DNA from: an uncultured Mycoplasmatota bacterium
GTDB taxonomy: Bacteria; Bacillota_I; Bacilli_A; RF39; UBA660
Direction of reading: 5' to 3'
Length of the DNA stretch: 64,000 nt
Assembly: GCA_900552495.1 (NCBI GenBank)
Contig: URZY01000005.1
Location: 55,030-119,029, forward strand
Shown: positions 14,783-15,791 of the stretch, in pieces
Layout of the letters: each line of letters opens with the position of its first letter
Numbering within the stretch: position 1 is the first letter of the stretch
Program-made: the position numbers and the translations under genes
The notes under the pieces: model-generated
What the model was told of the DNA's origin: nothing
What the model saw: the letters and a program-made list of their open reading frames with translations, nothing else
The model's database searches: none

Positions 14783-15451
14783 TTATAATTGCGTCTTTTC
14801 TAAATAAACTTTGTCATTCTCAGACAAATAAATACCATATAAGCCTTTTTGAGGGCAGGTAAAGATTAAAGTAGGTTGTTTAGATATTGATGGCTCTTCA
14901 GGGACTGGTTTATCAGTAGGTTCAGTAGGTAAGGTGGGAGATGGTATTTTTTTAAAGGTTAAACCAGCATTATTAATAATATTTATTGTGTCATCTATCC
15001 AAAGACATTCTTCGGGCTTTTTACCATTATTTATAGAATAATTACCATTACTATTTTTATGCCAGCCAGTTCCAGTAAACTTTCCTCTCCCACATTCTAT
15101 ATGGCAATGATTACCAGTTGCCTGACCAGTTGTACCTTCACTGTAGAATGCTTCTCCACGATTGATTTTTTTCCCTACAAAAAGATTACTTACATTGTTA
15201 GAATGAGCTAACATAATTGTCATGTAGTCAATTGTGCCATCAGGATATTCAACCTCATCAACACTTTCTAACCAAACTTCATTTGCATCTTGAGTATAAA
15301 TCTTTTTTATAATTCCTGTAAAAGGAGCAACTAAGGTGGAAATCGCTTGATCACTACCGGCTTCATCGATAGCATAACTATCAATATGACTACCTATTCC
15401 ATATGTTTGTGTAATACGCATATTTTTACTTGGATAAAGGGGTTTTTCCAT
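14783..15451 (-). CDS. Peptidase M23 (LytM/lysostaphin-like) family peptidoglycan endopeptidase lacking a signal peptide, with a Pro-rich linker and short C-terminal module
   Basis: GSHIDSYAIDEAG, MLAHSN and TTGQATGNHCHIECG align with the LytM motifs H..D, LYAHLS and STGNSTGPHLHFE. The N-terminus has no hydrophobic leader. Confidence 0.6.
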   Translation of the reverse strand: MEKPLYPSKNMRITQTYGIGSHIDSYAIDEAGSDQAISTLVAPFTGIIKKIYTQDANEVWLESVDEVEYPDGTIDYMTIMLAHSNNVSNLFVGKKINRGEAFYSEGTTGQATGNHCHIECGRGKFTGTGWHKNSNGNYSINNGKKPEECLWIDDTINIINNAGLTFKKIPSPTLPTEPTDKPVPEEPSISKQPTLIFTCPQKGLYGIYLSENDKVYLEKTQL

Positions 15452-15791
15452 TCTCTCGTTCCTCCTTATTAATAATATTTTCTGTAGAAATTGTCACTTT
15501 ATTTCTACTAATTATGTCTGTGTAAGATGCCAGTTTCCCTTCAAGCGTTTTATATAGTGAATCAGCTCCAAGAAAGGAAAATAAACCTACCCATAAACTG
15601 GTTGGAAATGTAATATCTGTGAAGGACATGCAAAAAATTATTCCAATTAACATATTTACTATAAAAGAATAAATGGGTAGACTCTTACTACTTTTAAATT
15701 GTTTTTTTGTTTTTTGAATTAAAGCACAGGTTATTGTACTTAGAGCTATTGAAATTATTAGTAATTCTTTTAAGAATTCAAAATTAAACAT
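15426..15791 (-). CDS. Holin-like small membrane protein (3 TM helices, charged C-terminus)
   Basis: The gene is 121 aa. The TM helices lie at approximately aa 8-26, 38-58 and 63-77, followed by a Lys/Glu-rich C-terminal tail. It overlaps the start of the M23 peptidase gene by 26 nt. Confidence 0.4.
   Translation of the reverse strand: MFNFEFLKELLIISIALSTITCALIQKTKKQFKSSKSLPIYSFIVNMLIGIIFCMSFTDITFPTSLWVGLFSFLGADSLYKTLEGKLASYTDIISRNKVTISTENIINKEERENGKTPLSK

Follow-up and report, generated by a model that had tools for sequence, protein, structure and literature searches.

The peptidoglycan hydrolases to which mother-cell lysis has been assigned, CwlC and CwlH in B. subtilis and CD2184 (EndD) in C. 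difficile, are leaderless and sigma-K-dependent, and the route by which they are exported is an open question (PMC3789822, PMC13320862). A holin paired with a peptidoglycan hydrolase, encoded on the chromosome outside any prophage, defines the systems that resemble the type 10 secretion system (T10SS; PMC9527704, PMC10109510, PMC10847048). In our literature searches we met no account of a holin and endolysin devoted to releasing spores. Here we describe two overlapping genes, coding for a holin-like protein and a leaderless M23 peptidoglycan endopeptidase, in a 64,000-nt stretch of contig URZY01000005.1 from an uncultured bacterium of the order RF39. We refer to this whole stretch as the window, and all coordinates below are given on it unless another contig is named. 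The pair is a vertically inherited and selected core locus, fixed at one site across a large part of RF39. We put at about even the chance that it is a domesticated phage lysis cassette, made up of a Hol118-type holin and a trimmed M23 endolysin, for programmed lysis of the mother cell and release of the spore.

The two genes and their ribosome-binding sites (RBS) are as follows:

15426..15791, minus strand: holin-like gene, 121 aa (from the list of open reading frames)
14783..15451, minus strand: gene for the leaderless M23 (phi29 gp13-like) peptidoglycan endopeptidase, 222 aa
15798..15803, minus strand: RBS of the holin gene, AGGAGG (read from the sequence)
15461..15467, minus strand: RBS of the M23 gene, AAGGAGG, inside the 3' end of the holin gene (codons ..NKEE..)

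The genes overlap by 26 nt (15426..15451), and because the RBS of the second is embedded in the coding sequence of the first, translation of the M23 protein appears to be coupled to that of the holin.

To place the pair in its lineage one genome per species was scanned, which identified 153 species genomes encoding a relative; the best 80 of these were examined, with the window genes mapped by tblastn. For each protein the relatives number in the hundreds; they share 55-80% identity and come from long contigs of metagenome-assembled genomes of the 'Bacilli bacterium' and 'Mycoplasma sp. CAG:877' types, CAG-877 being a member of the order RF39 (PMC8035907). The M23 gene is at the same locus in all 80 species and the holin gene is immediately upstream in all 79 loci that include that flank, with both reading frames intact in 80 of 80. 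In every locus whose upstream flank extends far enough, the pair is downstream of truA-rplM-rpsI. Insertions are frequent in the interval from rpsI to the holin gene, a hot spot that varies from 94 nt to 5.3 kb and in the window holds an rdgB/Ham1 gene (15872..16492, minus strand) that is at this place in none of the 80 related loci. The downstream flank likewise varies by species (ZIP transporter, membrane protein, CwlD-like amidase, transposases, transporters, kinase, surface proteins). The holin gene has a ratio of nonsynonymous to synonymous substitution (dN/dS) of 0.27 and the M23 gene one of 0.23, with values of 0.19 for truA and 0.24 for essC, and the pairwise divergence of the pair tracks that of the neighboring housekeeping genes (rho 0.5-0.67). 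The variable flanks of the related loci contain no cargo or phage genes, only transposases, transporters, a kinase, surface proteins and defence genes. Phage structural genes, an integrase and attachment (att) features are absent near the pair, whose neighbors in the window are rpsI, rdgB, essC and other host genes.

The holin-like protein has two strongly hydrophobic segments (residues ~8-25 and 39-58), a weaker third (64-76), a basic first loop (QKTKKQFKSSKS) and a charged C-terminal tail containing 8 K/R and 6 D/E residues. An AlphaFold2 model places helices at residues 4-31, 37-57 and 65-96 with modest confidence (predicted local distance difference test, pLDDT, 66). Against the Pfam family PF06946 (Phage_holin_5_1, Hol118) the protein scores 21.9 bits (E 2e-4), slightly below the gathering threshold of 22.4; 6 of 13 orthologues match the family at E<0.01 (best 6e-6), and precomputed matches to it are present on several orthologues. 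The protein also matches PHROG 1299, 'holin', at 8e-8, and 484 homologues were found. As is typical of Hol118-type proteins, it is encoded directly upstream of the endolysin, and this holds in 80 of 80 loci with junctions between -26 and +1 nt (distance from holin stop to M23 start: -1 in 59, 0 in 11, -26 in 8, and -23 and +1 in one each). The holin gene has no dual-start (antiholin) motif. These features support its identification as a Hol118/A118-type holin-like protein with a predicted lesion-forming function.

The 222-aa protein has three parts:

14942..15451, minus strand: M23 catalytic domain, aa 1-170
14876..14941, minus strand: Pro-rich linker, aa 171-192
14786..14875, minus strand: C-terminal module LIFTCxxxxLYGIYLxxxxKVYLE, aa 193-222

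It contains no hydrophobic leader segment (maximum Kyte-Doolittle value 1.24). The catalytic domain carries the motifs H22..D29, MLAHSN (80-85) and TTGQATGNHCHIE (107-119), with H22, D29, H83, H115 and H117 invariant in 81 of 81 orthologues and the zinc/catalytic residues aligning with the gp13 motifs SHKGTLCID and GDHWHF. The Pfam M23 family PF01551 gives 14.4 bits against a threshold of 28.7, with 11 of 14 orthologues likewise matching only below threshold. Since neither Pfam nor NCBIfam finds anything at threshold, the M23 assignment rests on PHROGs, a PDB profile and the fold. A PDB profile search with the family identifies the M23 domain of phi29 gp13 (3csq, E 4e-6), and this is also the best Foldseek match of the structure model (E 3e-7, TM-score 0.62, probability 1.0), followed by EnpA, DipM, LytU, lysostaphin and LytM. 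The model is of modest confidence (pLDDT 67). Taken together, sequence and model support the assignment of the protein as a leaderless M23 peptidoglycan endopeptidase, with its activity predicted. Pfam scans of the protein reveal no recognisable spore-targeting or cortex-binding domain. Wall binding, oligomerisation and autoinhibition are candidate roles of the C-terminal module, for which we draw no docking conclusion because the structure models of the two proteins (pLDDT 66-67) are only moderately confident. The presumably extracytoplasmic enzyme has conserved cysteines (C120 and C149, plus C199 in 14 sampled orthologues).

An initial annotation of the window had recognised the two open reading frames, with the sizes and 26-nt overlap that their coordinates give. 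For the first protein it proposed three transmembrane helices and a charged tail, which both hydropathy and the AlphaFold2 model recover, the third segment being weaker. For the second it listed the M23 motifs, the missing N-terminal leader, the Pro-rich linker and the short C-terminal module. Each of these is present, and the module (~25 aa) is conserved among orthologues. The identities it assigned, a holin-like protein and a leaderless M23 endopeptidase, are supported by the profile and PHROG matches, the PDB profile and the fold, and its remark that no other phage genes lie nearby agrees with the host character of the flanking genes.

Both proteins have relatives in phages. Both in PHROG and by tblastn of phage genomes the M23 protein matches endolysins and tail lysins, and its best match in a named phage is the endolysin of Clostridium phage Amboise (33.5% identity). 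A search with the catalytic-domain profile of 1.84 billion representative proteins identified about 1,400 clusters, most of them endolysin-sized and with other C-terminal domains. The closest comparison is provided by an IMG/VR phage contig (L084) in which tail-fibre genes and a holin gene are followed by the gene for a 333-aa endolysin. Residues 1-169 of this endolysin are 63% identical to the window M23 protein and its last 25 residues are the same module (LIFxSxKLDYYAIKLxxxxKLF; about L084 8925..9002), with an SH3-like and coiled-coil region lying between the two. From this comparison the RF39 enzyme appears to be a trimmed phage endolysin, composed of the catalytic domain, the Pro-rich linker and the C-terminal module. 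A ~25-residue module (LIFTCxxxxLYGIYLxxxxKLYLE) recurs at the C-terminal ends of phage endolysins with differing middle domains (L084, P0244, P0305). The L084 holin is of a different family with no homology to the window holin, and the likeness of their C-terminal tails is not significant. A 57%-identical holin adjoins an amidase endolysin in a second IMG/VR viral contig, L085. IMG/VR alone yielded a phage relative of the holin; a tblastn search of 50,697 phage genomes with the holin as query gave no match. These matches support a phage ancestry for both the holin and the M23 protein.

Upstream of the holin gene is a candidate promoter, which in the window comprises the following elements:

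15809..15817, minus strand: -10-like element CATATATTA (CATAnAnTA), 26 nt before the holin ATG
15835..15836, minus strand: 'AC', 17 nt upstream of CATA, at the sigma-K -35 position
15830..15849, minus strand: intrinsic-terminator-like hairpin of the upstream rdgB/Ham1 gene, the upstream boundary of the unit

CATAnAnTA is found in 76 of 79 species loci in addition to the window, and in 62 of them it is positioned 24-26 nt before the start codon; about 0.7 occurrences would be expected by chance over all 79 upstream sequences. The central A is invariant even though the search left that position free, and in an alignment of the holin upstream sequences the intergenic DNA around the element is not conserved. 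A conserved C lies 16-17 nt upstream of CATA in 52 of 70 unique sequences (preceded by A in only 21 of 70), and counted from the C of CATA there are further conserved positions at -1 (G, 47/70), -20 (T, 54/70) and -21 (G, 41/70). The window itself reads AC-17 nt-CATATATTA. Its AC falls within the 3' arm of the rdgB terminator hairpin, such that the terminator of the inserted gene overlaps the -35 of the holin promoter. Combined with an RBS the motif occurs once in the window (0.06 expected), and of 68 matches in 1.3 Mb of related DNA 64 precede the holin gene. A hairpin that might sequester the RBS (ATTAC...GTAAT) is present in the short holin leader in the window's clade only and is not conserved elsewhere.

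The holin motif is unlike the sigma-A promoters of the same genomes, which read TTGATT-17-TATAAT for rplM, TTGTAA-17-TATAAT for essC and TGnTATAAT for orf323, abi and orf303. The B. subtilis consensus sequences are KCACM/GCATANNNTA for sigma-K and TYATATTT/KCATANANTN for sigma-E (PMC3416734), whilst in C. difficile the two factors share a common -10 and differ in the -35, where sigma-E has ATA and sigma-K has AC (PMC3789822). Judged by the consensus sequences of these two species the holin -10 fits sigma-E and sigma-K alike, and the conserved C is at sigma-K spacing. We therefore regard sigma-K as the best fit for this predicted promoter, with sigma-E possible.

Most members of RF39 are predicted to be walled and spore-forming, and their ancestor lost most of the lyt/cwl endopeptidases (PMC10868615). 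The window encodes Spo0A (43569..44426, minus strand; TIGR02875, 279 bits with a cut-off of 200), which by its sequence is direct evidence that the master sporulation regulator has been kept in this reduced-genome organism; the gene adjoins the glycolysis genes tpiA, pgk and gap. Among the related loci, 31 have a CwlD-like Amidase_3 gene that is absent from the window. Its product has a signal peptide and its promoter, aATATTTta-14-aCATATA(C/A)TT, is of the sigma-E type, as expected for cwlD. Examples are:

L016, 12313..12996: CwlD-like gene
L005, 11648..12337: CwlD-like gene
L040, 12689..13402: CwlD-like gene

The gene is found in 28 further loci. It occupies the interval from the M23 gene to essC or spoIID, frequently alongside a ZIP zinc transporter gene on the opposite strand, and its position after rpsI recalls the B. 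subtilis order rplM-rpsI-...-cwlD. The clade of the window has lost it from the site after the M23 gene. A SpoIID-domain gene (8219..9289, plus strand; Pfam SpoIID 5e-10) has a promoter (about 8160..8200) with the sequence TTTTGTATA-N17-CATA(C/A)TA, which is just ahead of its AGGTGA RBS and is shared by the window with about 22 unique relatives. The sequence matches the forespore sigma-F/G type, unlike spoIID of B. subtilis, which is dependent on the mother-cell factor sigma-E. The -35 of the holin promoter differs from that of the sigma-E-type CwlD-like promoter. With the holin, CwlD-like and SpoIID-domain genes, three distinct classes of sporulation-type promoter are thus conserved side by side. 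Surface-protein genes with Big_6 and WxL-like domains (sub-threshold Pfam matches) and a DUF11 domain are found at 134..1582 (plus strand). These domains suggest a peptidoglycan-containing envelope, consistent with a substrate for the M23 enzyme.

These observations can be assembled into a working model. The cassette would have its own short-leader promoter, read by a mother-cell sporulation sigma factor, so that late in sporulation the mother cell would make both proteins from one translationally coupled mRNA. The holin would then accumulate in the mother-cell membrane and permeabilise it, the leaderless M23 endopeptidase would reach the wall and cut peptidoglycan cross-links, and the mother cell would lyse, freeing the spore. 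The sigma factor, the timing and the lytic, spore-releasing role in this model are what we infer. The more specific proposal that RF39 endospores are freed by a phage-style lysis clock, with a captured holin and a trimmed M23 endolysin under a late mother-cell sigma factor, is tentative, and we place it somewhat below an even chance. Several points weigh against the model. The sigma factor is assigned by consensus matching alone, the -35 region (GTnnC) is imperfect for the sigma-K 'AC' (its A being present in only 21 of 70 sequences), and the TAnAnT within the element would be enough for a minimal sigma-A -10 as well. A regulon search of the 1.3 Mb of related loci and the window, using both CATAnAnTA with an RBS and a two-block pattern, found no other gene with the full motif; because nearly every motif match is the holin gene itself, no co-regulated genes could be named. 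Neither structure model is more than modestly confident (pLDDT 66-67), and RF39 sporulation is itself predicted only from genomes. Finally, a mother-cell promoter would also be in keeping with a cortex-lytic enzyme of germination or with a hydrolase acting in engulfment.

This last point leads to the alternative that the pair carries out non-lytic wall remodelling in the mother cell under sigma-E or sigma-K, in engulfment, in cortex maturation or as a cortex-lytic germination enzyme deposited in the spore, with the holin-like protein letting the M23 enzyme through the outer forespore or mother-cell membrane. The promoter evidence is the same for this alternative, and the -10 fits sigma-E as well as sigma-K; there is a precedent in the cortex-lytic enzyme SleC, which is in the C. 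difficile sigma-K regulon (PMC3789822). The RF39 ancestor has also lost many lyt/cwl enzymes, and gerQ is reduced or missing in RF39 (PMC10868615). However, lysis from within is canonically brought about by a tightly coupled holin and soluble endolysin, the holin -35 is unlike that of the lineage's sigma-E-type CwlD-like promoter, and the M23 protein has no recognisable domain for spore targeting or cortex binding, so that we consider this alternative fairly unlikely. Alternatively, the pair could be a vegetative module for T10SS-like secretion or altruistic autolysis, possibly acting in a subpopulation, that releases unlinked leaderless cargo, DNA or public goods. The existence of the chromosomal non-prophage pairs cited at the outset, together with the conservation of the RF39 pair and the selection on it, would suit such a module; the absence of an adjacent conserved cargo gene, flanks that are variable and unrelated, and a promoter that is unlike the lineage's sigma-A type and matches the sporulation type make it unlikely. 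A decaying or selfish prophage remnant without host function, which had been the fallback of the initial annotation, is scarcely credible despite the phage relatives of both proteins. The pair is at one locus in at least 80 species with intact copies, dN/dS of 0.23-0.27, invariant catalytic residues and a conserved promoter, no phage structural, integrase or att features are found nearby, and neither frequent pseudogenisation nor patchiness of the kind left by horizontal gene transfer is seen. Nor is the pair found within intact prophages of relatives, which the initial annotation had named as an observation that would count against its proposals: in 80 species the site is a host chromosomal locus.

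Those proposals concerned the type VII secretion system (T7SS), and took the pair to be either the peptidoglycan-remodelling or export accessory of such a system or, for the M23 enzyme, an antibacterial effector delivered by it. In the window the pair is indeed close to essC, whose product has FtsK/SpoIIIE domains and an N-terminal FHA domain. The downstream boundary lies outside the cassette:

14696..14724, minus strand: sigma-A-type promoter of essC, TTGTAA-17-TATAAT

The gap between the M23 gene and essC is 115 nt, or 124 nt if essC starts at GTG 14658. That start agrees with the N-terminus of the relatives, MIV(K/R)LIKK, and is likely to be the true one in place of 14667. No strong terminator is present between the two genes in the window, making some read-through possible, and besides the window (~120 nt) essC is adjacent in five close relatives. 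Across the lineage, however, the association does not hold. When the holin-M23-essC trio was sought in related genomes, as the initial annotation had suggested, the pair was found to be fixed in 80 loci and essC to be downstream in 33, at a distance of 0.1-8.6 kb. Only in the five close relatives of the window is the gap 140 nt or less; otherwise it is 0.9-8.6 kb and filled with unrelated genes that include a ZIP transporter, a membrane protein, a CwlD-like amidase and transposases, and some of these genes are on the opposite strand. At 12 loci, where the search covered the syntenic locus, the conserved genes that lie beyond the T7SS cluster elsewhere (SpoIID-like, PLC-like, Abi and HtrA) are reached without essC or yukD, and the pair is intact. 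The description of the pair as directly upstream of essC is thus accurate for the window's own clade and not elsewhere. The essC promoter is conserved in related loci whatever precedes the gene, and the promoter motifs of the holin gene and essC, as identified in silico, are separate, conserved and different in kind. Because the pair is kept without essC elsewhere, the gaps are usually long and essC has its own promoter, the adjacency of the M23 gene and essC is best explained as a derived accident of gene loss in the window's clade. The same observations leave both T7SS proposals unsupported, and in addition the M23 protein lacks WXG/LXG features and the flanks examined contain no conserved partner gene. 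We consider a T7SS role very improbable; 'T7SS-associated hydrolase' is a tempting but wrong annotation.

The T7SS cluster is itself minimal and T7SSb-like (9299..14667, minus strand), encoding EssC, a YukD-like protein of 85 aa and small proteins of 94 and 69 aa. No homologues of EsaA, EssA or EssB were noticed near it, though no specific search for them was made. On the other side of the pair, three lineage-specific reading frames (115, 303 and 128 aa; 17652..19363, minus strand) are inserted between truA and rplM in an array that is otherwise canonical, rpoA-rplQ-ecfA-ecfA'-ecfT-truA-rplM-rpsI. None of the three matches a Pfam family at threshold, one having a weak sub-threshold match. The middle one, orf303, is conserved in many relatives. 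The possibility that orf303 and its neighbors are sporulation genes was rejected, as the orf303 promoter is an ordinary TGnTATAAT of the sigma-A type. Following the sigma-A promoter of rplM is a leader of ~90 nt (cggtacattcgaat..ccccacataaatt..gggaaa; about 17500..17640, minus strand) that is conserved in all relatives and resembles an L13-type ribosomal-protein leader, although it does not reach an Rfam gathering score. An Rfam scan of the whole window called only an S10-Clostridia leader (37801..37899), and nothing near the holin-M23 pair. Defence and mobile genes in the window comprise a GmrSD-type restriction enzyme, an Abi_2 protein, a truncated IS3 transposase and a DUF4143 AAA ATPase (coordinates of these genes, all on the minus strand: 1769..3403, 6138..7085, 39685..40260 and 42162..43439); the Abi_2 abortive-infection gene is syntenic in relatives.

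Mother-cell lysis is the least understood step of sporulation, and a holin tied to a lysin under a mother-cell-type promoter offers a concrete and testable mechanism for it. If the reading as a lysis cassette for spore release is correct, RF39 would provide the first case of a mother-cell lysis system that has an export device of its own, and a model for how the leaderless sigma-K-dependent lysins CwlC, CwlH and EndD get to the wall. Evidently a phage lysis cassette can be retained whole, as core genes, over very long periods, here in at least 80 species of a single order, extending the idea of co-opted holin/endolysin pairs of the T10SS-like kind beyond the release of toxins by pathogens. RF39 bacteria are abundant in human and animal guts and uncultured. 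The sigma-E-, G- and K-type promoters and Spo0A support their predicted sporulation, which bears on their transmission and on attempts to culture them.

The RF39 pair shares features with several described systems. It recalls the A118-type cassette of Hol118 and its endolysin, in which a small three-helix holin with a charged tail is likewise encoded directly upstream of, and coupled to, a leaderless endolysin, and members of the RF39 holin family have hidden Markov model matches to Phage_holin_5_1, that of the window protein falling just under the threshold. The RF39 pair differs in being outside a phage, at a fixed chromosomal site across the order and behind a host promoter of predicted sporulation type. 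Its enzyme is an M23 endopeptidase rather than an L-alanoyl-D-glutamate peptidase like Ply118, and its holin has no dual-start motif. The best profile and fold match of the enzyme is the M23 D,D-endopeptidase domain of phi29 gp13 (3csq), whose H-x6-D and HxH are kept in the RF39 protein; in gp13, however, this domain is joined to a lysozyme domain, and the enzyme is located at the phage tail tip. The phage endolysins of M23 type (L084, Clostridium phage Amboise) are close in another respect, the L084 catalytic domain being 63% identical and followed at the C-terminus by the same ~25-aa module, but where these have an SH3-like/coiled-coil wall-binding region the RF39 protein has a short Pro-rich linker.

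The S. aureus enzyme EssH is also a wall hydrolase encoded beside a T7SSb locus, a likeness that for the RF39 pair is confined to the window's clade. EssH has a signal peptide and a CHAP domain, is secreted, and is linked genetically to the ess locus, whereas the RF39 enzyme is leaderless, of M23 type, linked to a holin, separately promoted and kept where essC is absent from the locus. In the T10SS and holin-dependent toxin release systems (Serratia ChiWX, Salmonella TtsA, Yersinia entomophaga, C. difficile TcdE/TcdL) the host has recruited phage lysis genes to let material out through the envelope in a controlled way, and like them the RF39 pair is a chromosomal holin and peptidoglycan hydrolase outside a prophage. 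T10SS loci, however, adjoin the genes for what they release (chitinase, toxins), occur in pathogenicity loci and have a patchy distribution, whereas the RF39 pair has no linked cargo, is conserved order-wide and has a sporulation-type promoter. In its proposed function the pair resembles CwlC, CwlH and CD2184 (EndD), which are leaderless hydrolases with a late mother-cell promoter (predicted in the case of RF39) and a proposed role in freeing the spore. Those enzymes belong to Amidase_3 or Amidase_2 and have no cognate holin, while the RF39 enzyme is an M23 endopeptidase encoded together with one.

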